DNA of 28,463 bases. It comes from an uncultured Spirochaetota bacterium (GTDB lineage: Bacteria; Spirochaetota; Spirochaetia; SZUA-6; Fen-1364). Shown piece by piece: positions 6,823 through 20,935 of this stretch (position 1 is its first letter; each line of letters opens with the position of its first letter). The notes beneath the pieces are model-generated. The model searched no databases. It was given only the letters and a program-made list of their open reading frames with translations, and was not told the DNA's origin. Where the stretch lies: the NCBI GenBank assembly GCA_963745235.1, contig CAVUXE010000077.1:1-28463 (forward strand). Direction: 5' to 3'. The position numbers and the translations under genes were made by a program.

Positions 6823-6851
6823 TTGACCGGAAGAGGTCATCATATTATTTT
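6823..6851 (+). promoter_or_regulatory. sigma70-type promoter of the catabolic cluster
   Basis: TTGACC (6823-6828), 17-bp spacer, TATTTT (6846-6851), in an AT-rich patch about 45 bp before the M24 ATG. Confidence 0.6.
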
Positions 6852-6883
6852 CTTGATCAGTTGGTCAAACCAATTGACCAAGA
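6851..6883. promoter_or_regulatory. FadR/PdhR-type (GntR family) operator within a 33-bp imperfect palindrome
   Basis: TCTTGATCAGTTGGT-CAA-ACCAATTGACCAAGA, arms complementary at 13/15. The core AGTTGGTCAAACCAATT is one base from the PdhR-type consensus AATTGGTnnnACCAATT. Confidence 0.75.
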
Positions 6884-6895
6884 GATTCATCCGCT

Positions 6896-8032
6896 ATGGA
6901 AGATTACAAGACCCTTAAGCCATACGGATTCCGCAAGGATCGATTGCTCAACGAGATGGGCGCGCGAAAGCTTGATTGTCTACTATTAACTTCACCTGAA
7001 AACGTCTATTACGTCACCGGATATACGGTCCTTCCAAGCAGCGGAAATCCCATTCTCTATACCCTGCGCAATCGACTTCCGTACGTGGTGCATATCGATT
7101 CACAAGGGACGATCTCGCTGATTTGCTGGGGTTTTTCCGCGCAAGGAGTCTCATTCGGGGTCGACCACGTCGTCGGCATCAACACGTTCCGCGAGAGCGT
7201 CGAAGCTTTACTTCATCGTCTGTCCGCTCAACAAAGTCTGAGACGGGTTGGCATCGAATCTACCATGCCTTTCGCGGTATTCTCGGCGATCCGGAGCGCT
7301 TATCCCGCGCTCGACCTTGTCGACAGCGATGAGGTCATGAAGAAGTTGCGTCTTATCAAGTCAGCGAGCGAAATTGAGCAGATTGCTTCAAGCACTCGGA
7401 AGATCGAGCAAACTGTTCAGGAACTGTACGGTGTATTGCGCGTCGGTATGTCTCGCCTGGAGCTTATCCAGGAGGCCAAGTATCGCCTGCTGAAGAACGG
7501 CGCGGACGGAATAAGTCACGCCACTTTCGCCTTCGGTCGGGATAACCCGGAAATCGCTTTGGGCGAAAAGCTCGAAATGAACAATCTGATAACTCTTGAC
7601 CTCGGCGGGATATTCAATGGATATAGTTCGGACACCCGAAGATACGCTTTCACCGGTATTCCGCCGAGCTCGGTCCTTGCAAAATACCAGACCATGGTGG
7701 ACATCGTTGACGCTGTCGGTGCCGCCCTTGTCCCAGGGGCGACCTACGCGCGGGTATCAAGCCGCGCAGTCGAACTTTTCGAGGAACACGGTGAAAAGTC
7801 TGCCGGCCGGATGACGCATGTTGGTCACAACATCGGGATCGAAACCGAAGAAGAATGGATCGATGATAGCGAGAACCCAATCCAAATCGGAATGGTGATC
7901 AATATCGAGCTTTATACAACCACGGATTCGTTTGGACATATAGGAAATGAAGAAACTTTTGTCGTCGAGCAGAGTGGACCGCGGAGAATTTCCAGCCTCC
8001 CCCGAAAAATCAAGGCGATAGGACTCACGTGA
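6896..8032 (+). CDS. M24-family (Xaa-Pro peptidase/creatinase fold) metallohydrolase
   Basis: Creatinase_N-like SPENVYYVTGY; linker LRLIKSASEI; metal ligands in TLDLGGIFNGYSSDTRR, HVGHNIG, NIE and GNEET. Confidence 0.9.
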   Translation: MEDYKTLKPYGFRKDRLLNEMGARKLDCLLLTSPENVYYVTGYTVLPSSGNPILYTLRNRLPYVVHIDSQGTISLICWGFSAQGVSFGVDHVVGINTFRESVEALLHRLSAQQSLRRVGIESTMPFAVFSAIRSAYPALDLVDSDEVMKKLRLIKSASEIEQIASSTRKIEQTVQELYGVLRVGMSRLELIQEAKYRLLKNGADGISHATFAFGRDNPEIALGEKLEMNNLITLDLGGIFNGYSSDTRRYAFTGIPPSSVLAKYQTMVDIVDAVGAALVPGATYARVSSRAVELFEEHGEKSAGRMTHVGHNIGIETEEEWIDDSENPIQIGMVINIELYTTTDSFGHIGNEETFVVEQSGPRRISSLPRKIKAIGLT

Positions 8033-9058
8033 GGAACGGAAAGCTTCAGCTTGGACTTATTGGGCTCGGATCGATCAGCCAAGCGCATGTGGCGGGGTAC
8101 CAGGAGGAAGCGTCGCGGGTTGAGATCGCGGCGGTGTGTGACATCCGCGAGGAGGTTTTGCACGCGACTTCCAAGAAACTTCGCGCGAAGGCATACAGAA
8201 ATTTCGAAGAAATGCTCGCTGACCGGAACATCGAGGCTGTGGATATTATCCTGCCGCACAATCTGCACTTTCGAGTAGCGCAGGCGGCGCTCAAAAGTAG
8301 CAAACACGTCCTTGTTGAAAAGCCCATGACTCCAAGCAGCCAGGAATGTTCGCAACTAATAGCGCTTGCCGCTGAAAAACGTCTTACCTTTACCGCAGCG
8401 GAGAACACCCCTTTCGTGCTTGCGTACCAAGCAGTCGAGGAGTTGACGAAATCTGGCCTTGTAGGAAAACCTCGCGTCGTCCGGACCTTTATCTATGGCT
8501 CAGAGGTTGACAGGCTGACAAGAACCGACTTATGGAAAGGCAAACTCGATGGTTCAAACGGTGGTGCGATAATTGACGCGGGACCTCACTCCTTCTATCT
8601 CATTAAATGGCTGTTCGGTGAGATCGACAAGCTACAGGCTGCCCAATACAAGCTCGTAAACGAAAGCGAAGTCGAAGACAACGCAGTGATTTCGGGGTCC
8701 TTAAAGAACGGAGCGGTGTTCATCTCCGAGTTCAGCTTTACTGCAGAGATACCCTGGGGCGAACGTCTTGAGATCTATGGGTCCGAAGGAACGATCATTC
8801 TCGACCATCTGTTTGATCCTCCGATTCAGGTATACAGGGGAAGACACGACTATGAGGGCAAAGCCGTTGAACGAATCAAATACAATCCAAAGAAGTGGAA
8901 AAGTGATTCCATTGCACGTAGGAGTCAGAGACTTCATTTCCGCGGTACTGAATGAACGTCCTCCCCGGGTGGATCCAAGAGATGCGCAATACGGAGTCTA
9001 CATTGCAGAGAAGGCATACGAGTCCGTTCGCTCGGGAGGCAGGTCTGTGAATGTTTAG
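8029..9058 (+). CDS. Gfo/Idh/MocA-family oxidoreductase (copy 1), frameshift ~8917
   Basis: GLIGLGSI, KHVLVEKP, GGAIIDAGPH. The C-terminus VRDFISAVLNERPPRVDPRDAQYGVYIAEKAYES is in the next frame and matches the end of copy 2. The GTG overlaps the M24 stop (GTGA). Confidence 0.9.
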
Positions 9059-9061
9059 CCT

Positions 9062-9240
9062 ATGGGCGCTACGGCGGCTGAATTGCTACGACTTGCGAAG
9101 CTCCAAGGAGACATTGTGCAGAACCGAATCGCAATCGTGACCGGCGCCGCTACCTTCGAAGAAATAAAGAAAGCAACGGGAGGAGGAGCAGGCGTTGGGA
9201 AGGTGGGCCGATCCTCGCGAAATCGCCGAGGTAATCTGGT
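9062..9240 (+). pseudogene. possible degenerate BFD-like [2Fe-2S] ferredoxin remnant
   Basis: GDIVQ..IVTGAATFEEIKKATGGGAGVGK resembles the BFD pattern GA.T.EEIK..T.AG.GCG.C, but the Cys ligands are absent or out of frame. Confidence 0.3.
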
Positions 9241-9446
9241 TTCTATCCGGCAGCGGAGCATCATTCATTACTGGTGCGGATGTTCTCGCGGATGCGGGGT
9301 GGGTTGCCAGGTGAAATGGAGCGGTCCTTCGACCGCGAGGAGGGTGCACCAGGATCAAGAAAGAGGGAGTTTCCAAAGCACCGCCGTGACGCAAAAAAAA
9401 CGCGCTCATAGCGAAGTCAAGGACAAGTTCAAGAGGAGGCATATAT

Positions 9447-10735
9447 ATGAAGGGCACGGTACTGAAGAAGCGAATTGTTGTTCTTCTGGTTTTCCTCGGG
9501 CTCATCACTTTTGCCGGCTTCGCATTTGGGAGCCCGGTAGAGTTGAATTACGTGTATCGGATCACGAGCGCGGATCACGACACGTATATCAAGTGGCTTA
9601 CGGATGCGTTCAATCAAATGAACGCGGGAAAAATCCATCTGAATGTCACTGGAATTGCAGACAAGATATACAAATCGAAAATTGAGCTTCAACTGGCCGG
9701 CGCCGGGCTCCGGATGTCTTCTTCTCATGGGAGGGAGGATATGCGCAAGGCATGGTAGATTCCGGTTATGCGGCGCAACTTGACCCCTACTTCAAGAGTT
9801 ACGGATGGGATACATCTCTCACGGCGGCAGCCAGGTCGATCGCCACGATAGAGGGGCATCAATACTGTCTTCCTTACGTCATGGATGCGTCTCTGGTCTG
9901 GTACAATACCGACATTTTCAAGAAGTACAACCTGCGCGCCCCTAAGACATGGGATGAAATGATGAACGTCGCAAATGTCCTCAAGCAGAACGGCATTGCA
10001 CCGATGCTGCTCGCAAATCAGCAAAAGTGGGAGGCCCAATTCGACTGGACTGCATATTTCGTCAACAAGAATGGCGCACAGACGTACACTGATCTCTTGA
10101 ATCGCAAGATCCCATGGACCGATGAGAGGGTCATCGACACGTTCAAAGAGATGAAAAGTCTTGTCGACACGGGATTCTTCACGCGGGATTTTAGCTCCAT
10201 GGATTTTAGCACAACCGCGGATCAAGTGTGGGACGCTGGCAAGGCGGGGATGTGGTACCAGGGTTCCTTCATATTGTTCTACTTTCTGAACTCGAACAGA
10301 ACAGCTCTGAGGTCTCCTGTCTCTTTCTTCCCTTACCCCAAGATCGGTGATGTGGCACCAACCATTGAGATCTTTGCTGAGGAAACTGACATGATCAACG
10401 CTCATAGCAAATTCAAGGATGCGGCGGCCGAGTTCTTGAACTTTGCCGTGTCAAAACAGGCTCAGGAGCGACAGACGAAGACGGATGTCCCGTTCCCGGT
10501 AAACAAGAGTGTTGAGCTTACCGGGCTTCCGTTCATGGTCAAGCAGATCGGAGCGTTGATTGCCGGCTACAAAGGGTCGACCTGGATGCATGTGGACCAC
10601 GCCCTGACCTCGAACGTAGCAATTCCGTTCCTGGACTCTCTTTCCAGCGTCCTTACGGGACAAATGAGTCCGGAGGACGCCGCCAAAGCAGTCGAACAGG
10701 CAGCGCAGGCAGCGCTCGGTCCGGTCGCACAGTGA
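9447..10735 (+). CDS. CUT1 ABC transporter solute-binding protein (copy 1), frameshift ~9705
   Basis: GAGGAGG RBS; signal peptide KKRIVVLLVFLGLITFAGFAFG; rejoined APDVFFSWEGG, VWYNTDIFKKYNL.APKTWDE, GMWYQGS. Confidence 0.9.
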
Positions 10736-10745
10736 ACCGGCAGCG

Positions 10746-10769
10746 CAGGGGAGCGACAGTGCTCCCCTG
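10746..10769 (+). terminator. intercistronic stem-loop after SBP 1 (mRNA stabiliser or partial terminator)
   Basis: CAGGGGAGC-GACAGT-GCTCCCCTG, perfect 9-bp stem, no long U tract. Confidence 0.6.
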
Positions 10770-10832
10770 TTGCTCCCGAGGCGCGAGAACCCTGTCGGTT
10801 GAGGGCAGCAAGTGAGAGTAGCACAGAAACTC

Positions 10833-11726
10833 ATGAAGCTAAGGGAGCACTGGTTCATTGCTGCCTTTGGCGTGGCCGTTCCTCTGGCGCTTTTTGGCCT
10901 TTTTGTAGGATATCCGATCTGTTACAACGTAGTCCTGAGCTTCATGAAGTGGAACGGGCTCGCGCCGCGCCTTCAACCAGTCGGAATCAGCAACTACGCG
11001 ATGCTTGCCAACGCCTTTGTCTTTTGGATGGCGTTGTTCAACACGATCAAATGGTTGATTGGTACGGTGTTGCTCGCCAATGTTTTTGGCCTTTTGTTCG
11101 CCGCTGTTTTACAGCCGCGGCAAGTATATTTGTCCACCTTGTTCCGTTCACTGACATTCTTACCGGTGACGATGTCTTTGGTTTCGGTCGGAATAATGTT
11201 TGCCTTCATACTGGATCCAAACTTCGGCATCGTTAGCCATGCTATGCGCGCGTTGGGGTTACACTCGGCAGGTCCCGAGTTGCTAGGTGATCCGAGAATC
11301 GCAATATATTCCTTAATTGCCGTGTTCGGCTGGTCGTACGTCGCGGTTCCCATGATGATATATCATGCGGGGATTTCACAAATTTCTCCTGAGCTTTACG
11401 AAGCTGCCTGGCTTGAAGGCGCTGGTAGATCTCAGATTTTTCGCTATGTAACGATTCCTTCCTTGAGATCCGTTCTCGTCGTCGTCACTATCTATTCAGT
11501 AATACAAGGGTTCAGAAACTTTGATTTGATAGCAACTGTTACCAGCGGCGGACCTGGTAATGCAACAAGCGTTCTTGGCTTCTATATGTACATACTGGCC
11601 TTTGAGGAGCGTTTTTTTGGCCCGGGCGCGGCAGTCAGCACGCTTATACTAGTCTTAAGCCTGCTCTTCGTCGTAACTTATTTGAGACGGGTAGGACATA
11701 ATACACTCTATGCATCGGAAACTTAG
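10833..11726 (+). CDS. carbohydrate ABC transporter permease (MalF/UgpA-type)
   Basis: Transmembrane segments; ISPELYEAAWLEGA EAA loop; TSGGPGNATSVL. Alternative GTG start at 10812. Confidence 0.93.
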   Translation: MKLREHWFIAAFGVAVPLALFGLFVGYPICYNVVLSFMKWNGLAPRLQPVGISNYAMLANAFVFWMALFNTIKWLIGTVLLANVFGLLFAAVLQPRQVYLSTLFRSLTFLPVTMSLVSVGIMFAFILDPNFGIVSHAMRALGLHSAGPELLGDPRIAIYSLIAVFGWSYVAVPMMIYHAGISQISPELYEAAWLEGAGRSQIFRYVTIPSLRSVLVVVTIYSVIQGFRNFDLIATVTSGGPGNATSVLGFYMYILAFEERFFGPGAAVSTLILVLSLLFVVTYLRRVGHNTLYASET

Positions 11727-12549
11727 ACCAGAAAAGATTATTTGGACAATCATTGTAGCCGCGCTCGTTCTGATTTGGCTCTACCCTGTTGTTCTGTCAA
11801 TCTTTACCTCGCTAAAGACGACAGAACAGATTGCGCGCAATCCGTTCTCGCTGCCGGATCCAGTGACATTCAGTGCGTACATCGAATCCTGGAAAGTCCT
11901 GGGATTTCAATCGTTGCTTTTGAACAGCGCGATTTACGGGATCGGCGGTTCTCTGCTGGCCTTGGTCCTCGGCATCTTGCCGGCATTTGCTTTTACTCGC
12001 TTTCGAATTCCGGGTGGAACCATTCTCTTCGTCATGATTCTTACTACGTTGATGCTCCCGCAACAAACGGTCATTATTCCGCTCTACAATCTCTTGTTGA
12101 AATTAGGTCTTCTCAACACCAGGATAGGCCTTATTATTGTCCACGGTGTATATGGAATGGCATTTCAATTGTTGATTTTGTCCGGCTTTGTCAGCACCAT
12201 TCCAAAGGAGATCGAAATGGCGGCGCGCGCCGACGGCTGTTCTGACACGGGGATACTGCGATGGATTGTTATTCCGCTGACCGTTCCTGCGGCTGCAGTG
12301 GCAGTCACCTTGAATTTCATGGACATATGGAAAGAGTTTTTTTTCGCTCTCGTGTTCCTTAGCGATCAATCGGTAATGCCCGTAACGCTCGGAATCCTCA
12401 CAATGAGTCCTTTGGGTACGACGTACTTCAAGTCAATCAACTTGCCGGCCGCGACGGTCGTTCTGTCTCAGATTCCAATCATAGTCTTGTTTGTTTTTGC
12501 TTACCGTTGGATCAGCTCCGGCATCTTTGTCGGATCCGTGAAAGGATAG
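11710..12549 (+). CDS. carbohydrate ABC transporter permease (MalG/UgpE-type)
   Basis: IPKEIEMAARADGCS loop; WKEFFFALV; ends GSVKG; overlaps the upstream permease. Confidence 0.93.
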   Translation: MHRKLRPEKIIWTIIVAALVLIWLYPVVLSIFTSLKTTEQIARNPFSLPDPVTFSAYIESWKVLGFQSLLLNSAIYGIGGSLLALVLGILPAFAFTRFRIPGGTILFVMILTTLMLPQQTVIIPLYNLLLKLGLLNTRIGLIIVHGVYGMAFQLLILSGFVSTIPKEIEMAARADGCSDTGILRWIVIPLTVPAAAVAVTLNFMDIWKEFFFALVFLSDQSVMPVTLGILTMSPLGTTYFKSINLPAATVVLSQIPIIVLFVFAYRWISSGIFVGSVKG

Positions 12550-12569
12550 CAATGCAGGAGGTTGCTCAC

Positions 12570-13364
12570 GTGGAGAAGTTGATCATTACTGCAACCACGG
12601 CAAACTCGTGGATTTATCCCGATTTGAAAAACTGGGCTGGAAACGACAAAGATCTTGTCGAAGATGCGGTCAAATGCGCCGAAGCAGGTGCGGCGGTAAT
12701 CCATATACACCTGCCGCGCGGTCGTGAGGTGGATGTGGTGAAGCGGCTCCGTGACAGGACTGAGGCCCTCGTACAGGCGGGAATGTCAAGCGAACCGATT
12801 CCGGATCGCAAGGGCGATTTTACGGCTCGCCCCGACATGATGTCCGTCATTCTCAATCATCATGCCGAGCAATTCACAGAAGTCGAAGTGAACCGGCTCC
12901 ATCCTGTTTCCGAGCTGGAAGAATACTGCAAGCGCTGCCGCGATTCCGGGATAAAGCCCGAATGGGAAGTATGGAACAGCGGATCCTACTGGAATCTTCG
13001 ATACCTCAGGGACAAGGGATTGCTCGATCCGCCCAGCATCCTCACACTGTTTTTCGGCTGGCCGGGAGGGACCTGGTCTCCGTCCACACCGGAGGAGTTT
13101 CTTCATCGCGTCCACACCATGCCGGACGATTGCCGCTATGCCATCAGCGTCATGGGGGAGGAGCAGACCCTTATCGCGATATTGTCAATCGCCAGGGGGG
13201 GGAACGTTCGGGTGGGAACCGAAGATTGGCCTTTCTTGAGACCTGGCGTCAAAGCCAGGAACAACGCAGAGATCATAACACGGATGGTCGGTCTGGCTCG
13301 AGAAATCGGGCGTGAGATCGCCTCACCCCAGGAAGCAAGGAAAATCCTGGGCTTGCCTGGCTGA
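12570..13364 (+). CDS. beta-keto acid cleavage enzyme family (BKACE/DUF849, 3-keto-5-aminohexanoate cleavage enzyme-like)
   Basis: AGGAGG 8 nt before GTG 12570; KLIITAT, AEAGAAVIHIH (Zn His pair), GIKPEWEV, GGNVRVGTED, GREIASPQEARKILGL. Confidence 0.9.
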   Translation: MEKLIITATTANSWIYPDLKNWAGNDKDLVEDAVKCAEAGAAVIHIHLPRGREVDVVKRLRDRTEALVQAGMSSEPIPDRKGDFTARPDMMSVILNHHAEQFTEVEVNRLHPVSELEEYCKRCRDSGIKPEWEVWNSGSYWNLRYLRDKGLLDPPSILTLFFGWPGGTWSPSTPEEFLHRVHTMPDDCRYAISVMGEEQTLIAILSIARGGNVRVGTEDWPFLRPGVKARNNAEIITRMVGLAREIGREIASPQEARKILGLPG

Positions 13365-13373
13365 GGTCGGAGA

Positions 13374-14174: not shown

Positions 14175-14915
14175 ATGAGCACCGAGAGCCGAAAGGTCGA
14201 ATATGGAATTCTCCAGAGAGAGGTTCTCTCGGAAAAGATCGTGCAGCGACTTCTCTCGATGATCCGGGAAAAGCGTCTGCGTCCCGGGGACAAGCTTCCC
14301 CCGGAGCGGGAGTTGGCCGTGCTCATGAACGTGAGCCGCCCTTCGCTGAGAGAGGCTCTTCGCGCCCTGTCACTCATGGGGATCATCGAACACCGTCAGG
14401 GCTCGGGCACACGAGTCGCTTCACTCAAGCCTTCCCGGCTTGTTGAGCACATCGACCTCATCTTCTCTCTCGAGGACTCGACGCTCCTCGATCTTTTTCA
14501 GGCAAGGAAGATCCTGGAAGTCGGGCTTGCCGGACTCTCCGCGGAGAAGATCACCGACGAGGAGCTCGACCAGATCGACAAGGCGCTGCAGGAGGGGGAG
14601 CAGAATATCAATGACCCTGCAGCGTTCTCGAGTTGTGACATCAAGTTCCATGGACTTATCGCCAGATCCTCGGGGAATCGGATCCTTATGACATTCATGG
14701 AATCAGTTGCGCAGCTGAACCTTTACAGCCGTCGACGCACAGGTGAGCACGCGGATGTTCGGGAGCACACCAGAACCGCCCACCGGGACATCCTGGACGC
14801 CCTGCGGAAACACAGCCCCGAGGAGGCGCGGGCTGCAATGATGCGGCACTTGAGTTTCGTCGAAGAACGGCTGAAAACAATTGCGATACAGGAAGAGGCC
14901 AGGACGTTGTCCTGA
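14175..14915 (+). CDS. FadR-subfamily GntR regulator (wHTH + FCD)
   Basis: LRPGDKLPPERELAVLMNVSRPSLREAL..RQGSGT; FCD ARKILE, DIKFHGLIARSSGN, HRDILDAL, MMRHL. Confidence 0.95.
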   Translation: MSTESRKVEYGILQREVLSEKIVQRLLSMIREKRLRPGDKLPPERELAVLMNVSRPSLREALRALSLMGIIEHRQGSGTRVASLKPSRLVEHIDLIFSLEDSTLLDLFQARKILEVGLAGLSAEKITDEELDQIDKALQEGEQNINDPAAFSSCDIKFHGLIARSSGNRILMTFMESVAQLNLYSRRRTGEHADVREHTRTAHRDILDALRKHSPEEARAAMMRHLSFVEERLKTIAIQEEARTLS

Positions 14916-14953: not shown

Positions 14954-16255
14954 ATGAAGAGGTATAGCTTATTTTTGCTGGTTGGTATTTTGCTCGTTGC
15001 GAGCGCAACCTACACGGCTGCTTCTGGCAACAAGGAAGCGACTACGGCAGGACCCTCCGGAGTAGTGAACCTGACCTACTTCGAGCGTAATAATGACCCG
15101 ATCAACTGGGCCGAGTTCAACTGGGAGGTCAATACCTTCAATCAGCAGAACGCCGGGAAGATCCACGTCACCTTGAGCGGAATTGATGGAGTGACTTTCC
15201 GAACCAAGGCGCCTATCGAGCTGCAGAGCGGCAATCCGCCGGACATCTTCTTCGCCTGGGAGGGCGGTTGGGCTCAGAAGATGGTCTCCTCGGGCTTTGC
15301 TGCCCCTCTGGACGACTATTATGCCAAGTACGGATGGGCCAGTTTCGTGAACCCCGCTGGTGTCACTCTTGCAACAATCGACGGCCACAAGTACTTCCTC
15401 CCCACGCAGATGTCCGGGTCATTCGTATGGTATCGACCGGATATCTTTGCGCAATACAACATACAGGTGCCCACCACCTGGGACGAGTTCCTCCAGGTCT
15501 GCGATACGCTCAAGACCAACGGGGTCATTCCGCTGATGATTGCAGACCAGGCAAAATGGCCAGCGCAGTTCGAGTGGACGGCCATCTATGTCAACAAGTA
15601 CGGCCTCTCCAAGTACGACGAGTTGCTCCACAACAAGATCCCCTGGACCGATCCGAGCGTCGTGGATGCATTCAATGTGCTCCGGGACCTGGTTACCAAG
15701 GGGTACGTGTGGCCGGGTTACAACTCCACTGATATCGATCCCGGAAACATTCCCTTCTCTCAGGGCAAGGTGGCCATGTGGTACCAGGGGACCTGGATGA
15801 TCAGTACCTTTCTGGGCAACAACAAGACCTTGCCGTTCTCAGTCGGCTTTTTTCCATTCCCTGCATTTCCAGGGGTCAAACCAACCATCGAGGTCTTTGC
15901 CGAAAACACGCTGATGATAGACTCCAAGTCCAAATACAAGGACCAGGCCGCGGAGTTCCTCAACTGGATAATCTCTGACCAGGCGCAGCAGCACAAGATC
16001 AACTCTCAGCTGCCCTATGCGGCCAATACTCGCGTCAGCCTTGCCTCGCTGATTCCCCTGGCGCAGCAGGCCGGTGGCACAATGGCCAAGGCAGGCCAGT
16101 TCACGTTCATGCACGTCGATCACGCCTTTGATCCTGCCATTGCCGATACGTTCCTCACCCAGCTTCAAGGCGTTTTAAGCGGCGCGATCTCCGGGCAGAC
16201 GGCAGCCGAGGCGACGGAAACCACGGCCACTCAGGTCCGCGGTGCGGTAAAGTAG
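14954..16255 (+). CDS. CUT1 ABC transporter solute-binding protein (copy 2)
   Basis: AAGGAGGAG RBS; signal peptide ending ASGNKEA; PPDIFFAWEGG, PTTWDEFL, AMWYQGTW; shares PTIE.FAE and MHVDHA with copy 1. Confidence 0.95.
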   Translation: MKRYSLFLLVGILLVASATYTAASGNKEATTAGPSGVVNLTYFERNNDPINWAEFNWEVNTFNQQNAGKIHVTLSGIDGVTFRTKAPIELQSGNPPDIFFAWEGGWAQKMVSSGFAAPLDDYYAKYGWASFVNPAGVTLATIDGHKYFLPTQMSGSFVWYRPDIFAQYNIQVPTTWDEFLQVCDTLKTNGVIPLMIADQAKWPAQFEWTAIYVNKYGLSKYDELLHNKIPWTDPSVVDAFNVLRDLVTKGYVWPGYNSTDIDPGNIPFSQGKVAMWYQGTWMISTFLGNNKTLPFSVGFFPFPAFPGVKPTIEVFAENTLMIDSKSKYKDQAAEFLNWIISDQAQQHKINSQLPYAANTRVSLASLIPLAQQAGGTMAKAGQFTFMHVDHAFDPAIADTFLTQLQGVLSGAISGQTAAEATETTATQVRGAVK

Positions 16256-16274
16256 CTTCCGTGTGCAAGACGAT

Positions 16275-16315: not shown

Positions 16316-16380
16316 CCTGATTTCAGTAGACAACTTGCCGCCCACCCTCTTTCTGAGGCGAATGGACGGATGTCATTACC

Positions 16381-17292
16381 TTGAACATACGTAATTGGTG
16401 GAGGATTTTTTCCCGTCACAAGTTTGTCTACCTTGCAGGCGTTGTCCTGCCGGTGATCCTCTATGCGATATTCGTCGGCTACCCAATCGTGAATACTATT
16501 TTTCTGAGTCTTTTCCGGTGGAATCAGATTGGTATTCAAAAGGTCTGGATTGGGATTCAGAACTATCGGCAGCTTTTCAGGGATGCAAACTTCTATCTCT
16601 CATTGATAAATACGGCCAAATGGACAGCCTTGACCTTGTTGATCCCGGTGTTGATCGGCTTCTTGCTGGCAGTTTTCCTCACCAGCGGCAGGGCTTATCT
16701 CAGCGGGGTGATTCGGTCCTTGTTTTTTCTTCCGATTACCATGTCGCTGATCACCATTGGCATCATGTTTTCCCTGATTCTCAACCCTGTTTTTGGAGCA
16801 TTCAATACGACCCTCCATGCGATCGGCCTTGGTTTCCTTGCGCATGATTGGCTCGGAGACCCGAACACCGCCTTATATACCCTCATTTTCACGTTTGCGT
16901 GGAGCTACCTGGGATTGCCGCTTACCATGTTCTTTGCAGGCATAAAGCAGATCCCGGAGGAGCTTTTTGATGCTACAAAGATTGAAGGCGCCAATATTCT
17001 CCAGAACCTGCGCTTCGTCACCGTCCCCCTGCTGCGGCCCGTCTTTACTATTGTGGTGGTCCTCGCGGTGATCAACTCCGTGCGCTCGTTTGACCTCGTG
17101 TTTGCCATGACGCGCGGAGGCCCATTCGGGCAAACCACCGTCCTGGGGTACTACATGTACACGCAGGCCTTCCTTGCGTATCGCTATGGATACGGCGCCT
17201 CGGTGAGCGTCGTATTGCTGGTCATCAGCTCGATATTCGCTTTTGTCTATCTGAGGACAATCGCCAGAGAGTCGCTGCATGCTGAGTCCTAA
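16381..17292 (+). CDS. carbohydrate ABC transporter permease (MalF/UgpA-type), copy 2
   Basis: IPEELFDATKIEGA loop; MTRGGPFGQTTVL; TTG start uncertain. Confidence 0.93.
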   Translation: MNIRNWWRIFSRHKFVYLAGVVLPVILYAIFVGYPIVNTIFLSLFRWNQIGIQKVWIGIQNYRQLFRDANFYLSLINTAKWTALTLLIPVLIGFLLAVFLTSGRAYLSGVIRSLFFLPITMSLITIGIMFSLILNPVFGAFNTTLHAIGLGFLAHDWLGDPNTALYTLIFTFAWSYLGLPLTMFFAGIKQIPEELFDATKIEGANILQNLRFVTVPLLRPVFTIVVVLAVINSVRSFDLVFAMTRGGPFGQTTVLGYYMYTQAFLAYRYGYGASVSVVLLVISSIFAFVYLRTIARESLHAES

Positions 17293-18157
17293 TGTCATTC
17301 GCAATCCGGATATTCCCCGCACGAGAACCAGGAAGATTCAAATCAGCAAGGTGCTCTATTTCATTATTGCCATCGTGATCCTGGCTATATGGTTGTACCC
17401 GGCATTTTTGGACGTGATCACGGCTATCAAGAACGATAATGAAGTTCTCGCTTCCCCTCTTGCCCTCCCTGCCCATCCCACACTCGAAGGGTTCATCAAG
17501 ACCTGGAATTACATCACTTTTGGGACGCTGATTAAGAACAGCTTCATCATCACGATCGGGGCAGTGCTATTGGGGATCGTCATCTCGTCGATCCCGGCCT
17601 ACGCCTTCAGCAGGTTCCGCATTCCGGGGGGAGATCTCATCTTCATTATCCTGCTTACCACGCTGATGCTGCCCCAGCAGACGGTTATTATCCCGTTGTA
17701 CGCCGTGCTGGGGCGTCTGGGACTCCTCGACACTTTGCTGGGGCTGATCGTCGTCCATGCAGTCTATGGGATGCCGTTCAACATGTTCGTCATGCGCGGC
17801 TTCATGGCTGGTATTCCCCAGGAGCTGGAGGCGGCAGCCAGAATGGACGGCTGCTCGGATTTTGGTTTGTACCGCCGCATCATCCTGCCATTGTCCGTGC
17901 CGGCAATTGCAGTAGCGGCTACCCTGAATTTTATCAATATCTGGAATGAGTTTTTCTTTGCAATCGTCTTGCTGCAATCCAACGCAAAGTTTCCAGTGAC
18001 GGTTGGAATGATTACGATTACGCAATCGCAGTACTTTTCCTCATGGAACACGCCTGCGGCAGCAGTCATTATGGCCCAAATACCGACCATCATTCTCTAT
18101 ATTTTTGCCCACCGCTACATTACCCGGGGTCTTCTAGCGGGTGGGGTGAAAGGTTAA
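17279..18157 (+). CDS. carbohydrate ABC transporter permease (MalG/UgpE-type), copy 2
   Basis: IPQELEAAARMDGCS; WNEFFFA; ends GGVKG; ILLTTLMLPQQTVIIPLY is nearly identical to copy 1. Confidence 0.94.
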   Translation: MLSPNVIRNPDIPRTRTRKIQISKVLYFIIAIVILAIWLYPAFLDVITAIKNDNEVLASPLALPAHPTLEGFIKTWNYITFGTLIKNSFIITIGAVLLGIVISSIPAYAFSRFRIPGGDLIFIILLTTLMLPQQTVIIPLYAVLGRLGLLDTLLGLIVVHAVYGMPFNMFVMRGFMAGIPQELEAAARMDGCSDFGLYRRIILPLSVPAIAVAATLNFINIWNEFFFAIVLLQSNAKFPVTVGMITITQSQYFSSWNTPAAAVIMAQIPTIILYIFAHRYITRGLLAGGVKG

Positions 18158-18186
18158 AGACCCGGGCGGCAACGGAGGTAATCTGC

Positions 18187-19029
18187 ATGATGCCAGAAGA
18201 AATGGATGAGTTTTCCGGATATCGCTACGAGCTGATGCGACCGCAGCAGATCATAGCAGCACGTGAGAAGTCTTCAATGGCCTTCATTCCCCTTGGGCCA
18301 ATGGAATGGCATGCGCCGCATATGCCGTACGGGACCGATATGCTGCATGCGTACGCGATCTCCCTCCATCTCGCGAAGGAGTTCGGGGGAGTGGTACTGC
18401 CGCCACTGCCTCTGGGCTCTGAGACGATCCTCTCGCCGGACCGTCTGCGCGACCGTGGGTTCAAAGGAGATGAGAAGATCATCGGGATGGACTTCCCCGA
18501 TCTGGCGCTTCCCAGCCTCTATATCGAGGAAAGCGCCTTTGCGAGCATTGTTCTTGAGCTCGTCAGGGCACTCAAGCGGCAGGGCTTTCGCGTGGTGGTC
18601 ATCGTGAATGGCCATGGCGGCAAGTATCACCTCATCGCTCTTGACAGGATCGCGGCTGAGGAGAGCGAACGCGGGCAGGCGGCTGTGATCCATGGTTTCC
18701 CTGTCGACCCCGAACGCAGACGCCTGGGCGGGCACGCGGAGAAGTTCGAGAGCAGCTTCATGAAAGCCTATTATCCTGAGACAGTCGATCTGGCAGCGCT
18801 GCCTCCACTGGGAAAGCCGATCAAGAACATGGAGTTCGGTATCCTGGACGGGCCTACCTGCATTGGCGAGCCGACCCCGGATTATACGGTGCGTGAAAAC
18901 CAGGATCCACGTCACGCCAACGAAAAGGACGGCCAGGAAGAGCTGAAAAACGCGGTGCATCTGATCGGAACTCGGATCCGGGAAGCCATGCGCGACCTGA
19001 AATTGCAGCAGACAGCGGCAAAGAAATAA
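18187..19029 (+). CDS. creatininase-family amidohydrolase (copy 1)
   Basis: GGAGG 8 nt before ATG; PLGPMEWHAPHMPYGTD, VNGHGGK, GGHAEKFESS. Confidence 0.9.
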   Translation: MMPEEMDEFSGYRYELMRPQQIIAAREKSSMAFIPLGPMEWHAPHMPYGTDMLHAYAISLHLAKEFGGVVLPPLPLGSETILSPDRLRDRGFKGDEKIIGMDFPDLALPSLYIEESAFASIVLELVRALKRQGFRVVVIVNGHGGKYHLIALDRIAAEESERGQAAVIHGFPVDPERRRLGGHAEKFESSFMKAYYPETVDLAALPPLGKPIKNMEFGILDGPTCIGEPTPDYTVRENQDPRHANEKDGQEELKNAVHLIGTRIREAMRDLKLQQTAAKK

Positions 19030-19039
19030 GGAGAGCAAG

Positions 19040-19891
19040 ATGAACAAGCCTGGTCAGGACGAATCGGATTCCAGATACCGGTATGACCTGATGCGTCCGC
19101 AGCAAATTATTGCGAGACGGGATCAATCGCCCATTGCCTACGTTCCTCTCGGTCCGCTCGAGTGGCATGGACCTGCGCTGCCCTACGGAATGGATTTCCT
19201 CCATGCCTACCGGATGTCCCTGGCGCTGGCCAGGGAGTTCGGCGGCGTTGTCCTGCCGCCGCTTCCCCTGGGCTCCGAAACTGTCCTGGAGTCAGACCGG
19301 GTGAAAGACAGAGGCTTCAAGGGCGACGAGAAAATCTGGGGAATGGACTTCCCGACTCTGCCGCTGCCGAGCCTGTATGTTCGCGATCATGCCATGGGCA
19401 CGCTGCTCCACGACCTGGTCGGGGCCTTGAAGAGACAGTTGTTTCGACTGATTGTCATGGTGAACGGCCACGGCGCCAAGTACCACGTGGTAACACTCGA
19501 AAGGATTGCAGCCGAGGAAACTGAACCAGGGAAGGTGGCTGTGATCCATGGTTTTGCGTTCGACGTCGGGCCCGGAAAGGGAGGGCACGCGGAGAGGTAC
19601 GAAACGGGGTTCCTGATGGCATATTATCCGGATACCGTTGACCTGAGCACACTGCCATCTCTGCCCACCCCTCTCAAGAACGTCGAGACCGGAATACTTG
19701 ATGGGCCAACATGTGTCGGCAAGCCTACCGCGGATTTCACGGTGCGGCCCGAGCAGGATCCACGCCATGCATCGGCAGAAGAAGGCTTTCAAGACGTCGT
19801 CAATGGCGTCCGACGGATCGGGGCGCAGATGAAGAAGGCCATGGAGAGCTTTACCTACCAGCCCGGGTTGAATACATACTATTCCCAGTAG
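19040..19891 (+). CDS. creatininase-family amidohydrolase (copy 2)
   Basis: AAGGAG RBS; PLGPLEWHGPALPYGMD, VNGHGAK, GGHAERYETG. Confidence 0.9.
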   Translation: MNKPGQDESDSRYRYDLMRPQQIIARRDQSPIAYVPLGPLEWHGPALPYGMDFLHAYRMSLALAREFGGVVLPPLPLGSETVLESDRVKDRGFKGDEKIWGMDFPTLPLPSLYVRDHAMGTLLHDLVGALKRQLFRLIVMVNGHGAKYHVVTLERIAAEETEPGKVAVIHGFAFDVGPGKGGHAERYETGFLMAYYPDTVDLSTLPSLPTPLKNVETGILDGPTCVGKPTADFTVRPEQDPRHASAEEGFQDVVNGVRRIGAQMKKAMESFTYQPGLNTYYSQ

Positions 19892-19906
19892 ATGAGGAAG
19901 AAGCCC

Positions 19907-20935
19907 ATGAGAAGCAGCGCGATAGGGTTTGGTCTCATAGGGGCGGGTGAGGTCTCCGACTTTCACGAAAAGGGGTATCAGGCCGCGAAAAACAAGGGGA
20001 GAATCGTGGCTGTCTGTGACCTTGATGAAAACAAAGCCAGGGAGAAAGCTGCGCCTCATAAAGCCAGGGTCTACACCGATTATCATCAACTGCTTGCGAA
20101 TACAGATGTGGAAGCTGTCGATATCATGCTGCCGCACTTCCTGCACTTTCCTGTCGCTGCGGCTGCGCTGGAGCAGGGGAAGCATGTGATTGTCGAAAAG
20201 CCGATTACGGTCTCCTGGCAGGAGGGAGAGCAATTATGTGAGCTGGCCAGGCGCCAGGGAGTACGGTTCACCGTGGCGGAAAATACCCGGTACGTCACCG
20301 CGTACCAAGAGGTTGAAAAGCTCATCAGGGAGGGTGTCCTGGGAGAACCGTGCCTGATCCGAACGTTCATCTACGGGTCCGAGATGATTCGCCTGCACGA
20401 TCCCAACAGCTGGGTCCGCCGGGACAAAGAATCCGGCGGCGGCGCAACCATCGACATGGCGGCTCATTCCCTGTATCTGCTCAAATGGCTGTTTGGTGAG
20501 CTCAAGGACGTCCAGGCAATGCAGTGGCAATGTGTCGCTGAGACGGAAGTACCGGATAATTCCATCGTCGCCGGAAGGTTGAAAAATGGTGCCATCTATG
20601 CGACCCAATACACTGATACGGCAGAAATCCCCTGGGGAGAAAGACTGGAGGTCTACGGCCGCCAGGGGTCCTTGATTGTTGACCAGCTTCATAATCCTCC
20701 GGCAGTTCTCTATAGAAACAAGGATGACAGTCAAGGAAGACCGCTGAAGAGCGTTCCTTTCGATCCGTTGAATTGGAAGAAGAACTCGATGATCGCCGAG
20801 GTTCAGGCGTTTGTCCAAGCTGTCTGGGAGGACAAACCTCCTTTGCTGGACCCGATGGATGGCGTTTATGTCGTCAAGATGATCGAGAAAGCCTACCTTT
20901 CCGCCAGACAAGGAGGGATAGTCATCACGGCATAG
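19907..20935 (+). CDS. Gfo/Idh/MocA-family oxidoreductase (copy 2)
   Basis: GLIGAGEV, KHVIVEKP, GGGATIDMAAH; shares RTFIYGSE, KWLFGE and TAEIPWGERLE with copy 1. Confidence 0.93.
   Translation: MRSSAIGFGLIGAGEVSDFHEKGYQAAKNKGRIVAVCDLDENKAREKAAPHKARVYTDYHQLLANTDVEAVDIMLPHFLHFPVAAAALEQGKHVIVEKPITVSWQEGEQLCELARRQGVRFTVAENTRYVTAYQEVEKLIREGVLGEPCLIRTFIYGSEMIRLHDPNSWVRRDKESGGGATIDMAAHSLYLLKWLFGELKDVQAMQWQCVAETEVPDNSIVAGRLKNGAIYATQYTDTAEIPWGERLEVYGRQGSLIVDQLHNPPAVLYRNKDDSQGRPLKSVPFDPLNWKKNSMIAEVQAFVQAVWEDKPPLLDPMDGVYVVKMIEKAYLSARQGGIVITA

Follow-up and report, generated by a model that had tools for sequence, protein, structure and literature searches.

A low-GC, two-module gene array of a Spirochaetota bacterium: a possible catabolic island for a decorated sugar

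Introduction

The pairing of an SDR dehydrogenase with a BKACE enzyme has genetic support in the oxidative deoxyribonate pathway, as described in the accessible portion of PMC6365646. The succession of an SDR and a BKACE acting with acetyl-CoA is already known for a sugar acid (PMC6365646, same portion); these are the last two steps of the route put forward in the sequence-only reading of the locus considered here, and its view of the combination as no described pathway has to be qualified for them. According to the available part of the NetSyn preprint, BKACE group G7 is without keto-acid activity, this non-BKACE group lacking at least one of the residues corresponding to the Zn ligands and the catalytic Glu of Kce.

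The present analysis concerns a gene array at positions 6823-20935 of the window, i.e., of the whole 28,463-nucleotide stretch of DNA that was analysed. The combination of families in this array had not been recognized as a described pathway, and a literature search likewise found no description of it.

Architecture of the Array

The array is a low-GC composite (GC 0.53-0.55, vs 0.61 for the genome) of two modules. Module 1 consists of an M24 protein, a Gfo, an ABC importer, BKACE, an SDR, and an FCD/GntR regulator, while module 2 consists of a second importer, two creatininase-family paralogs, and a Gfo, its own regulator gene being absent. The 14 genes and families of the sequence-only reading, all on the + strand, are real, as Pfam places each at the coordinates claimed for it, including four BPD_transp_1 permeases; a 15th gene, a decayed second SDR at 9059-9314, had been missed. 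The M24 and Gfo1 genes overlap by 4 nt and the permease pairs by 17 and 14 nt; the other intergenic gaps are given as 0 to 29 nt, with 39 nt between the regulator gene and SBP2. Pfam and NCBIfam profiles confirm that 6823-20935 contains no kinase, aldolase, glycosidase, aminotransferase, or ABC ATPase. The missing ATPase is ordinary; a stand-alone UgpC/MalK-type ATPase gene is present on contig C58 of the same genome (447 bits vs a cut-off of 432). Every NCBIfam equivalog score for the array proteins is far under its cut-off.

The upstream region and module 1 comprise the following features:

6823..6851, + strand, sigma-70-like promoter TTGACC-17-TATTTT (9 of 12 positions match)
6861..6873, + strand, palindromic box TTGGT-N3-ACCAA, candidate operator for the FCD/GntR regulator (sole window match)
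6896..8032, + strand, M24 metallohydrolase with Creatinase_N, window type, M24-W (Pfam, 79.8 and 60.2 bits)
8029..9058, + strand, Gfo/Idh/MocA dehydrogenase Gfo1 (Pfam; frame change near 8918 in the assembly)
9059..9314, + strand, SDRb, what is left of a second SDR (the TGAA motif of the N-terminus fused to the final ~55 residues; frameshift)
9447..10735, + strand, CUT1 substrate-binding protein SBP1 (Pfam SBP_bac_1 at 9752-10735; frame change near 9704)
10812..11726, + strand, ABC permease 1a (BPD_transp_1; best NCBIfam match GlcT-like)
11710..12549, + strand, ABC permease 1b (BPD_transp_1; best NCBIfam match GlcU-like)
12552..13364, + strand, BKACE-family enzyme of an Asgard-rich subfamily (Pfam, 164 bits)
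13374..14117, + strand, SDR dehydrogenase SDRa, the BKACE partner (Pfam, 203.6 bits)
14175..14915, + strand, GntR-family regulator with FCD domain (Pfam, GntR 74.8 and FCD 96.2 bits)
14900..14914, + strand, putative hairpin plus T-run where the regulator gene ends (consensus match)

The promoter was assigned by its position and not by site count; promoter-like sites in the region are no more numerous than in shuffles. The box, which has a single match in the window (chance expectation 0.65 at one tolerated mismatch), lies behind the promoter-like site and 23 nt upstream of the M24 gene, the first of the array. An identical box with conserved flanks is found at 3694-3706 of locus L004, from one same-genus MAG, likewise 23 nt ahead of the M24 start codon. 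We take the box to resemble those of the PdhR/LldR type. The regulator had been called FadR; it belongs to the FadR subfamily (GntR plus FCD) but is not FadR itself (48 bits vs a cut-off of 189), and its best NCBIfam matches, both under cut-off, are NanR (162 bits) and LldR (142 bits). One promoter and operator had also been proposed for all 14 genes. A promoter-like site and a box are indeed located upstream, but the hairpin and T-run follow the regulator gene, and a single transcript over all 14 genes is therefore not established.

M24-W keeps all five residues (D, D, H, E, E) aligned with the positions that we take to be the metal ligands of prolidase 1pv9. It shares 84% identity with the M24 of L004, 38% with that of L014, and 28-29% with the common Asgard M24 type; conservation is at the family level and not at that of orthologues. 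In the BKACE, H-x-H, the Glu within PEWEVW, and R..ED all align with Kce 2y7d, the Zn and catalytic residues being kept. The BKACE is 62-66% identical to Asgard proteins, and SDRa is 60% identical to the SDR adjoining BKACE in the Asgard locus L008.

The frameshifts in Gfo1 and SBP1 are probably assembly indels, because either change seen in the short-read contig of run X1, the only one that spans both sites, restores the frame: one base fewer at 8918 for Gfo1, and one extra G after 9704 for SBP1. Residues 99-440 of SBP1 are 87% identical to the L004 SBP. Relative to its L004 counterpart (5958-6704), SDRb is short of about 180 codons, those of the catalytic core among them. This deletion is real, because an X2 contig over 9022-9209 crosses the junction (about 9152) with zero differences. 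In the same region, another 118 nt are deleted in X3, and X4 has two gaps of 1 nt.

Module 2 comprises the following genes:

14954..16255, + strand, CUT1 substrate-binding protein SBP2 (Pfam SBP_bac_1, 145 bits)
16381..17292, + strand, ABC permease 2a (Pfam BPD_transp_1)
17279..18157, + strand, ABC permease 2b (Pfam BPD_transp_1)
18187..19029, + strand, creatininase-family metallohydrolase Crn1 (Pfam, 111 bits; start codon set by alignment with Crn2)
19040..19891, + strand, creatininase-family metallohydrolase Crn2 (Pfam, 89 bits; 60% identical to Crn1)
19892..20935, + strand, Gfo/Idh/MocA dehydrogenase Gfo2 (Pfam; 46% identical to Gfo1)

SBP2 is a paralog of SBP1 (45% identity); the nearest solved relatives of SBP2 bind xylo- and chitin-oligosaccharides, and the best NCBIfam match of both SBPs is NgcE. 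The metal motifs E-x-H...D, NGHG, and H-A-E are invariant in the creatininase alignment. Among the best solved relatives of Gfo2 are the sugar C3-dehydrogenases DgpA (7xr9), 3q2k, and 3q2i, the latter two presumably being WlbA.

Distribution of the Two Modules

The BKACE subfamily has 205 relatives among the species genomes scanned, and 60 of the best 80 carry Asgard labels. An SDR is found in 65, an M24 in 58, and a Gfo in 50 of 81 subfamily loci, and SDRs closest to the L008 SDRa query occur 49 times. Of the 38 loci flanked by 5 kb or more on either side, 29 have all three families. All these counts draw mostly on related Asgard genomes, whose loci are not independent. Together with the synteny of L004, the co-occurrence confirms that close homologues co-cluster elsewhere. 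In L004 it is the M24-to-GntR half that is syntenic (78-88% identity). The creatininase pair, the second importer, and Gfo2 are absent there, which goes against the 14 genes being one conserved unit. Distribution among relatives is patchy, with 1 of 20 same-genus genomes having the BKACE orthologue.

The creatininase subfamily of module 2 lies next to BKACE or M24 in none of its 80 best loci and with DegT aminotransferases in 26 of them. Creatininase-family genes occur in just 2 of the 81 BKACE loci, and the two module sets co-occur only in the window and in two other bacterial MAGs. In one of these, an Anaerolineaceae MAG (L014), all component families are found together in a different gene order, and only there does the module-2 creatininase subfamily adjoin BKACE. 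In the other (L055), a less closely related creatininase (27% identity with Crn2) lies beside BKACE, in the place taken in Asgard loci by PIG-L deacetylase (24 of the 81 loci). Another Spirochaetota genome has M24-W, Gfo::M24, BKACE, SDRb, GntR, and PfkB, and a second cluster of the present genome, on contig C35, contains a Gfo::M24 ORF of 757 aa. Of the 120 relatives of this ORF listed, 113 have both domains and 16 also have SCP2. CoA enzymes adjoin the cluster in L053 and L075 (an NDP-forming acyl-CoA synthetase-like gene) and again in L075 (a thiolase).

Proposed Pathway

We tentatively favor, as somewhat short of probable, a reading of the array as a horizontally acquired two-module catabolic island that imports and degrades a decorated sugar; a glycoside-like amino sugar or an N-acyl sugar would be the likeliest kind. 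Horizontal acquisition is favored by the low GC and the patchy distribution, and the reading as a whole by the tight packing, the box conserved in L004, the co-occurrence of BKACE, SDR, M24, and Gfo families, the Gfo::M24 fusions, the intact active-site residues of M24, BKACE, and both creatininase paralogs, and the CoA enzymes near some loci. Our best guess for the substrate is a chitobiose-like amino-sugar glycoside. This is indirectly hinted at by the NgcE matches of both SBPs and the oligosaccharide-binding relatives of SBP2, by the solved relatives of Gfo2 (3q2k/3q2i and DgpA), by the association of the creatininase subfamily with DegT sugar aminotransferases, and by the Asgard PIG-L whose place a creatininase takes in L055.

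Either of the two paralogous importers would take up the compound, with the ATPase encoded elsewhere. The two creatininase-family enzymes of module 2 would cut off an amide-linked group and Gfo2 would oxidize a sugar hydroxyl, while in module 1 the sugar would be oxidized by Gfo1. M24 may then act directly on the Gfo1 product, either by opening a lactone or by cleavage or elimination at a keto-sugar. The resulting hydroxy acid would be oxidized by SDRa to a beta-keto acid, which BKACE would cleave with acetyl-CoA to give an acyl-CoA together with acetoacetate, either plain or substituted. The FCD/GntR protein is predicted to act from the TTGGT-N3-ACCAA box and to keep the island repressed until bound by an acidic intermediate.

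Several points weigh against this proposal, among them the low NCBIfam scores, the family-level conservation of M24, the absence of module 2 from L004 and the rarity of creatininase genes beside BKACE, the non-independence of the loci counted, and the gene neighbors in Asgard loci and in L078 described below. An ordinary aldonate would yield a beta-keto acid bearing a 2-hydroxyl or 2-amino group, and we know of no characterized BKACE that accepts such a substrate. Furthermore, a family-I CoA-transferase and an acetoacetate decarboxylase were not found in the genome, which is 85.7% complete, and the fate of acetoacetate is therefore unexplained under the BKACE route.

Alternative Pathways

In 39 of the 81 loci (Asgard), the gene immediately before BKACE is a KDG-kinase-like PfkB, and some loci add a KDPG aldolase or an FAH hydrolase, which points to 2-keto-3-deoxy acids and not to CoA chemistry. 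We consider unlikely, however, that the core converts an aldose into a 2-keto-3-deoxy-aldonate without phosphorylation. In such a route C1 would be oxidized by a Gfo or by the glucose-1-dehydrogenase-like SDRa, M24 and the BKACE-fold enzyme would supply novel lactonase and dehydratase (or isomerase) activities, and the product would be passed on either to KDG kinase plus KDPG aldolase or to SDRb plus an FAH hydrolase. SDRa does pass the glucose 1-dehydrogenase subfamily model (220.6 vs 215 bits), SDRb occurs in five loci with an FAH resembling 2,4-didehydro-3-deoxy-L-rhamnonate hydrolase, and the genome has three KDPG aldolase genes and no CoA-transferase gene that could be found. In its favor, too, the M24 fold includes DddP, presumably a lyase and a weak match to the L008 M24, and the BKACE fold includes a hydrolase, cis-epoxysuccinate hydrolase (5zmu). 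The inactivity of G7 toward keto acids, as given in the available part of the NetSyn preprint, is also in line with it, but the window enzyme, unlike G7, keeps every residue that aligns with a Zn ligand or the catalytic Glu in Kce. Moreover, M24 and BKACE in L078 have a separate IlvD/Edd dehydratase and a separate Amidohydro_2 lactonase as neighbors and are therefore not simply such enzymes themselves; the window is without kinase, aldolase, and FAH, and SDRb is deleted.

IolG is the best NCBIfam match of every Gfo (114-153 bits), and it is conceivable, albeit rather unlikely, that inositol-type Gfo enzymes produce a diketo-cyclitol whose ring is opened through C-C hydrolysis by creatininase and/or M24, as in Thermotoga IolN, SDR and BKACE then shortening the keto acid. 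The creatininase proteins match the IolN model weakly (29-45 bits), a creatininase gene on C99 adjoins a xylose-isomerase-like TIM gene that weakly matches IolO, and an IolD-like TPP enzyme (144 bits) is divergent beside the C35 cluster. DegT enzymes, in addition, can use inososes. However, these scores are far under the cut-offs (IolG 355, IolN 245, IolD 715, and IolO 300), the importers are of the CUT1 type with nearest solved relatives binding oligosaccharides and not cyclitols, the best solved relatives of Gfo2 include glycoside/nucleotide-sugar C3-dehydrogenases (94-102 bits, vs 65 for scyllo-inositol dehydrogenase), and a GH5 glycosidase and PIG-L deacetylase belong to the Asgard versions.

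The chemical difficulty with BKACE would disappear if the substrate were a genuine 2-deoxy sugar and the pathway directly analogous to the route of Price and colleagues, since C2 is then a methylene group and ordinary BKACE chemistry suffices. Here a 2-deoxy sugar (deoxyribose, for instance, or a deoxyhexose glycoside) would be oxidized by Gfo, M24 would open the lactone, SDRa would oxidize the 2-deoxyaldonate at C3, and BKACE would cleave. This is the sole SDR-BKACE role in sugar metabolism known to have experimental support (PMC6365646). We nevertheless find the pathway improbable: the importers resemble oligosaccharide binders, no function remains for either creatininase, for the two or three Gfo enzymes, for PIG-L, or for KDG kinase, and an acetoacetate CoA-transferase was not found in the 85.7% complete genome.

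Improbable as well is that two unrelated operons lie side by side, with module 2 handling a different compound and sharing only its position with module 1, as the module-1-only L004, the 0 of 80 creatininase loci with BKACE or M24, the hairpin and T-run after the regulator gene, and the single box ahead of module 1 would suggest, because creatininase-family genes recur within the BKACE/M24 clusters of L014 and L055 in differing gene orders, SBP1/SBP2 and Gfo1/Gfo2 are mutual closest paralogs in the genome (45-46% identity), and just 39 nt separate the regulator gene from SBP2 in a module without a regulator of its own.

Comparison with Described Pathways

The closest known logic to that of the decorated-sugar island proposed here is the oxidative deoxyribonate route, in which, according to the accessible portion of PMC6365646, a dehydrogenase, a lactonase, an SDR, and a BKACE act. 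With regard to the enzyme at the end of this series, the window BKACE differs from the G7 group, as characterized in the available part of the NetSyn preprint, in keeping all the Zn-ligand and catalytic Glu positions of Kce.

Gene Content of the Island

The window is a complete 28.5-kb contig (C77) of a 5.85-Mb metagenome-assembled genome that is 85.7% complete, and its nearest cluster-bearing relative is labeled Spirochaetota. Between 6896 and 20935, every long open reading frame with a family match lies on the forward strand, and the genes are in most places packed with overlaps of 4 to 17 nt or gaps of 0 to 29 nt. The features of the island are as follows.

6823–6851, forward strand: promoter-like site TTGACC-17-TATTTT, a match to the consensus
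6861–6873, forward strand: perfect palindrome TTGGT-N3-ACCAA, the single such box in the window and a candidate operator
First half of the gene order (module 1), forward strand: M24 with Creatinase_N, Gfo/Idh/MocA dehydrogenase Gfo1, binding protein SBP1, two permeases, BKACE, short-chain dehydrogenase SDRa, GntR+FCD regulator
9059–9314, forward strand: remnant of a second SDR type (SDRb), between Gfo1 and SBP1
Second half of the gene order (module 2), forward strand: binding protein SBP2, two permeases, creatininase-family enzymes Crn1 and Crn2, dehydrogenase Gfo2

The families and their order thus agree with those listed by the sequence-only reading. The Pfam and NCBIfam scans of the island detected no kinase, aldolase, glycosidase, aminotransferase, or ABC ATPase, as that reading had also stated, and its gene list is therefore correct. 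That reading could see neither the SDRb remnant nor the frame changes treated below. No island protein reached an NCBIfam equivalog cutoff, and function can therefore not be transferred by homology.

The assembly contains frame shifts in Gfo1 near 8918 and in SBP1 near 9704. Contigs of four public soil/peat sequencing runs (X1–X4) were aligned to 8000–10900 of the window. At 8918 an X1 contig is one base shorter, and after 9704 it has an extra G; each of these changes restores the frame. Because the two places are bridged by X1 only, X2–X4 having no contig across them, and because X1 may be the source sample of the window assembly, the two frameshifts are probable, not proven, assembly errors. 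The SDR deletion is genuine. The remnant fuses the N-terminal TGAA motif to the last ~55 residues, with about 180 codons gone relative to the intact gene of L004, a metagenome-assembled genome of the same genus, and an X2 contig spans the deletion junction with zero differences. In X3, a peat run, the remnant carries an extra 118-nt deletion (window 9070–9189), and in X4 it has two 1-nt gaps; the remnant therefore varies between populations. The genes around it are ~99% identical between runs, and its lesions are the picture of a dead gene.

The flanks of the island carry other sugar genes. A TIM gene resembling D-psicose 3-epimerase is represented at 2–421 by its 3′ part (207 bits against a cutoff of 300), and 24421–26511 on the reverse strand encodes a 696-aa Melibiase-family protein that is beta-L-arabinopyranosidase-like (488 bits against 1100). 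A LacI-family regulator at 454–1494 is split into two adjoining frames, 454–1125 and 1126–1494, and the genes upstream of it (AraC_N, ADH_Fe_C, aldo-keto reductase) are fragments. This region reflects either further assembly indels in the contig or decay.

Regulation

The number of TTGGT-N3-ACCAA boxes is not significant alone, as chance would give 0.65 when one mismatch is tolerated. In L004, the same box with identical flanks is located the same 23 nt ahead of the M24 start codon, the remaining spacer having diverged. Because the box recurs at equal distance, the comparison supports a single predicted operator ahead of the first island gene, in agreement with the sequence-only reading. Boxes of this kind serve FCD-type regulators, PdhR and LldR among them.

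The regulator has the architecture of the FadR subfamily, with a GntR helix-turn-helix (74.8 bits) and a C-terminal FCD domain (96.2 bits). The earlier designation as FadR is thus right at the level of the subfamily and wrong for FadR itself, which is excluded by a score of 48 bits against a cutoff of 189. The best NCBIfam matches are NanR and LldR, both under their cutoffs. A hairpin followed by a T-run is present at the extreme end of the regulator gene.

Two Modules and Their Origin

The 14 genes had been taken as one unit; the comparison with other loci resolves them into two modules instead. L004 has module 1 only. Its genes for M24, Gfo, an intact second SDR, importer, BKACE, SDR, and GntR follow one another as in the window, at 78–88% identity, and after the GntR gene it continues with unrelated genes on the other strand. 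Beyond permease-level similarity, the window and L004 have no shared flanks. Modules 1 and 2 occur together elsewhere in only two loci. The first, L014 from an Anaerolineaceae metagenome-assembled genome, has the order GntR, GlcD-like oxidase, Crn, importer, Gfo, Crn, M24, BKACE, SDR, and FAH hydrolase, and is 57–64% identical to module 2 and 38–45% identical to module 1. The second, L055, has a more distant creatininase gene within a BKACE-SDR-Gfo-Crn-SCP2-M24 cluster.

Module 1 is itself mixed. Its M24 is of a bacterial type that is common to L004, L014, and one other Spirochaetota genome and is 28–29% identical to the usual Asgard type. Its BKACE and SDRa are 60–66% identical to Asgard proteins, which suggests that these two genes may have been transferred between Asgard archaea and anaerobic bacteria. 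The GC content of the island is 0.53–0.55, against 0.61 for the genome, and a BKACE orthologue is present in 1 of 20 same-genus genomes. The simplest reading would be that the island was horizontally acquired.

The BKACE Subfamily and Its Conserved Neighbors

The BKACE protein matches PF05853 with 164.4 bits (gathering score 24.8). In the alignment with Kce (2y7d), its IHIH, PEWEVW, and RVGTED stand opposite IHLH, PEVEVY, and RCGFED, so that it retains the positions aligned with what we take to be the Zn ligands of Kce (H-x-H and Glu), the catalytic Glu, and the Arg-Glu-Asp motif. With these Kce-like residues kept, the protein looks different from the inactive G7 group, which the NetSyn preprint calls "non-BKACE" as opposed to the competent groups G1–G6. 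One curated model tested alongside gave 128.1 bits against a cutoff of 382, and the NCBIfam model of the 3,5-dioxohexanoate enzyme gave 106 bits against 430; neither cutoff was reached. The BKACE gene ends at 13364, SDRa starts at 13374, and the regulator gene is next, which places an adjacent SDR–BKACE pair in one regulated operon. For SDRa, only the broad "glucose 1-dehydrogenase" subfamily model of NCBIfam was passed.

A scan with an alignment query against a collection of one genome per species returned 205 relatives. The best 80 of these are labeled in their records as Asgard (60), "uncultured archaeon" (10), Thermoplasmatota (2), and bacterial (8), two of the "bacterial" contigs having 32–38% GC. 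The Asgard lineages among the best 80 loci (L025–L094) are Prometheo-, Thor-, Hod-, Hermod-, Hel-, Jord-, Freya-, and Atabeyarchaeia.

Gene families found beside BKACE, in loci out of 81
SDR: 65
M24: 58
Gfo: 50
KDG-kinase-like PfkB: 39
SCP2: 30
Unnamed 297-aa protein: 27
PIG-L deacetylase: 24
GH5: 19
UROD-like: 14
FAH: 5
KDPG aldolase: 5
GntR: 3

Because the loci come mostly from related genomes, these counts measure conservation and not independent events. SDR, M24, and Gfo are all found beside BKACE in 29 of the 38 loci having at least 5 kb on each side, and the co-occurrence in other genomes on which the sequence-only reading had staked its cluster is thus borne out for these families. No paper describing the enzyme set was found, and the same holds for searches combining BKACE with creatininase, and 3-keto-5-aminohexanoate cleavage with Asgard. 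An undescribed, conserved catabolic gene set does exist, as had been proposed; its predicted terminal chemistry has a described precedent in the deoxyribonate pathway, which the sequence-only reading did not name.

The fullest version of the cluster is that of an Atabeyarchaeia chromosome (L078, 3707–16395), which contains a TPP enzyme, Gfo, two tandem M24, SDRb, BKACE, FAH, a xylose-isomerase-like TIM gene, an IlvD/Edd dehydratase, a further Gfo, and an Amidohydro_2 lactonase-like gene. For reconstructing the pathway, this version can serve as a template.

Candidate Functions of the Other Components

In the window M24, all five metal ligands (D, D, H, E, E) are aligned with those of 1pv9 and 1wy2, whose ligand positions are assumed here. 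The protein is therefore a metalloenzyme, unlike the metal-free creatinase. Assignment of M24 as prolidase PepQ (NF040821) was rejected at 79.4 bits against a cutoff of 630, and that of Gfo1 and Gfo2 as inositol 2-dehydrogenase IolG (TIGR04380) at 114 and 143 bits against 355. The best-scoring solved relatives of Gfo2 include 3q2k and 3q2i, both presumably WlbA, and the C-glycoside 3-oxidoreductase DgpA, at 89–96 bits, with an unnamed oxidoreductase ahead of them at 102 bits. These 3q2k, 3q2i, and DgpA scores are somewhat above those of 1-dehydrogenases and inositol dehydrogenases.

This genome contains a second, paralogous cluster on contig C35 (C35:226993-231534; L095 9994-14580), consisting of Gfo, an importer of the CUT1 type, a Gfo::M24 fusion of 757 aa, a BKACE gene that is interrupted by an assembly frameshift, an SDR of the SDRb type, GntR/FCD, and an NAD-epimerase. 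Upstream of this cluster, a TPP enzyme resembling IolD is encoded divergently. Among the 120 best matches listed in a search with the fusion protein, 113 have both domains and 16 have a C-terminal SCP2 domain also; a protein of the culturable Treponema sp. TIM-1 is among the named fusions. Such a fusion is strong evidence, at the level of sequence, that the Gfo dehydrogenase and the M24 metallohydrolase would work in succession. Within the phylum, it is found in 2 of 301 genomes, this genome included, and the other genome supplied one more gene context. In some of the fusions (P0089–P0112, ~926–931 aa), the SCP2 (sterol-carrier) domain is the third and C-terminal one, whereas the Asgard loci encode SCP2 separately, next to M24. 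The SCP2 partner hints at a substrate that is partly hydrophobic or at a CoA ester.

The window encodes two CUT1-type importers, each with an SBP_bac_1 protein and two permeases, the ATPase being outside the cluster. A UgpC/MalK-type ATPase gene on contig C58 scores 447 bits against the NCBIfam cutoff of 432, with the OB_MalK Pfam domain alone sub-threshold, and we infer that it powers the island importers. The nearest solved relatives of SBP2 are binders of xylo- and chitin-oligosaccharides, and the best NCBIfam model for both SBP1 and SBP2 is NgcE.

Crn1 and Crn2 belong to PF02633 (111 and 89 bits) and retain the binuclear-site motifs E-x-H...D, G-H-G, and H-x-E. Residues E41, H43, D52, H144, H183, and E188, which we take to be the metal ligands, are invariant in the creatininase alignment. 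Both proteins were rejected as creatininase (TIGR04448 equivalog; 51.9 and 39.8 bits against 235) and as the 3-dehydro-scyllo-inosose hydrolase IolN (NF041098; 32.8 and 29.3 bits against 245, over the N-terminal part only). The subfamily has 378 relatives in species genomes. In the best 80 of these 378 loci, the neighbors are DegT-type sugar aminotransferases (26), Gfo (17), and permeases (13), and neither M24 nor BKACE is found. Many phyla show this creatininase–DegT–Gfo pattern (26 of the best 80 loci), of which no description was found, and the culturable Cellulomonas sp. Root485 is a named carrier of the creatininase subfamily. A third sugar-type cluster of this genome, at C99:205000-214000 (L096), contains an importer of the CUT1 type, Crn, a TIM gene resembling xylose isomerase, DegT, Crn, and DegT, the creatininase paralogs being 32–37% identical to Crn1 and Crn2.

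An HMM built from the creatininase alignment and the L055 protein detected no creatininase genes in the 81 BKACE loci beyond those of L014 and L055. The site of the creatininase gene in L055 is occupied by the PIG-L deacetylase in Asgard loci. The unnamed 297-aa protein of the Asgard loci was considered as a hidden creatininase and rejected, with a BLASTP E-value of 2.0 and a blank Pfam result even at E = 10.

Proposed Pathway and Alternatives

To our knowledge, every characterized BKACE acts on a beta-keto acid made by a neighboring dehydrogenase, carnitine breakdown being one precedent. Further precedents are deoxyribonate (PMC6365646) and triacetate in phloroglucinol breakdown (PMC10470551). 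By analogy, the firmest inference for the island is the SDRa–BKACE pair, in which the dehydrogenase would feed the BKACE. On the basis of these precedents and of the order of steps in the deoxyribonate pathway, a six-step route is proposed. A glycoside-like compound would be imported (step 1), and in carriers of module 2 the creatininase enzymes would take off an amide-linked group (step 2). The sugar would then be oxidized by Gfo (step 3) and the oxidized product handled by M24 (step 4). SDRa would convert the resulting acid into a beta-keto acid (step 5), to be cleaved by BKACE with acetyl-CoA (step 6).

Four weak lines, namely the SBP relatives, the Gfo2 relatives, the DegT partners, and the PIG-L/creatininase exchange, point to an N-acetylhexosamine-type glycoside as the substrate; that the substrate contains nitrogen is a guess. 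Family-I CoA-transferase and acetoacetate decarboxylase gave no matches (0 to PF01144 and 0 to PF06314) in the 85.7%-complete genome, which counts against the route. Thiolases are present (263 bits).

An enzyme with the BKACE fold could alternatively perform non-CoA chemistry on sugar acids, since in the Asgard loci BKACE comes directly after a KDG-kinase-like gene and some loci add a KDPG aldolase or an SDRb–FAH pair, the latter typical of 2-keto-3-deoxy-acid breakdown. However, L078 owns a classical lactonase and dehydratase beside M24 and BKACE, and in L053 and L075 the cluster is flanked by NDP-forming acyl-CoA synthetase-like genes and a thiolase. A cyclitol route, whose sole support is sub-threshold matches to IolG, IolN, IolD, and IolO, would be a less likely alternative.

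In its most novel form, the route through oxidation and BKACE cleavage would give Gfo and M24, fused in more than 100 protein clusters, some with SCP2, a joint role in which decorated (amino-)sugar glycosides are first oxidized and then cleaved independently of any glycosidase. The keto-sugar would lead to a 3-keto acid, cleaved with acetyl-CoA by a dedicated BKACE subfamily, in a CoA-dependent manner and with no initial phosphorylation, and this machinery would be common to, and exchanged between, Asgard archaea and scattered anaerobic bacteria. We consider this full proposal improbable as it stands.

If the reading is true, three large families whose default annotations are prolidase, creatininase, and lysine-fermentation Kce would gain new sugar-related functions. 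The enzyme set is common, with 205 BKACE relatives and 113 fusions among the 120 best matches. Asgard archaea have it particularly often, and as their carbon metabolism is under debate, a defined substrate would bear on their diet. The window contributes a version from bacteria that includes importers and a regulator, the parts easiest for ligand finding.

Comparison with Known Systems

Oxidative, glycosidase-free glycoside cleavage (DgpA, 7xr9; glucuronide-3-dehydrogenase, 8tdi; BT_2158/BT_2159) starts with a Gfo-type 3-dehydrogenase. The island shares with it the lack of a cluster glycosidase and the coupling of a metal enzyme to a dehydrogenase, and DgpA is among the best solved relatives of Gfo2. 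In place of M24, the known systems rely on TIM lyases resembling xylose isomerase. They differ further in that the BT_2158/BT_2159 models give 40–55 bits here against cutoffs of 650–750, and C3 regiochemistry of the island Gfo enzymes would be hypothetical.

The myo-inositol route of Thermotoga maritima reportedly proceeds through IolG-IolM-IolN-IolO (NCBIfam models NF041098 and NF041099). The shared element is a Gfo-type dehydrogenase followed by a creatininase-fold hydrolase, which in Thermotoga acts on a C–C bond of a diketone ring, and KDG kinase and aldolase form the end of that route, like the Asgard versions of the cluster. However, the IolN model gives 29–45 bits here against a cutoff of 245, the Thermotoga route is without BKACE and M24, and the island importers resemble oligosaccharide binders.

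The non-phosphorylative L-rhamnose/L-fucose branch combines a 2-keto-3-deoxy-aldonate 4-dehydrogenase (SDR) with an FAH-family diketo hydrolase. An SDRb-type gene is likewise found beside FAH in five loci (L014, L068, L077, L078, and L086), the FAH of such loci scoring 227 bits with the 2,4-didehydro-3-deoxy-L-rhamnonate hydrolase model, under the cutoff of 500. In the window, by contrast, SDRb is deleted and the FAH gene is absent.

The anaerobic phloroglucinol pathway of Clostridium scatologenes (PGR-DPGC-TfD-TAL), according to the accessible part of its description, shares a metal-dependent ring/C–C hydrolase, a dehydrogenase forming a beta-keto acid, and a BKACE-family lyase (PMC10470551). 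The same part gives an aromatic substrate and has no sugar importer or Gfo, and the pathway was rejected as a match, DPGC being in the "cyclase" family and not in M24 or creatininase (PMC10470551).

The oxidative deoxyribose/deoxyribonate pathway is described for Pseudomonas simiae, Paraburkholderia, and Burkholderia (Price et al. 2019, PMC6365646). As far as the accessible part of that paper extends, its first dehydrogenase is a molybdenum enzyme, its transporters are of the MFS type, and M24, creatininase, and Gfo do not appear; glycerate kinase and acetoacetate-utilization genes are needed (PMC6365646), whereas CoA-transferase was not found in this genome. In the same account, the pathway shares with the island an operon with its own regulator and transporters, and the conversion of sugar to lactone to acid, the formation of a beta-keto acid by an SDR, and the cleavage with acetyl-CoA by an adjacent BKACE are the steps that are proposed here (PMC6365646).
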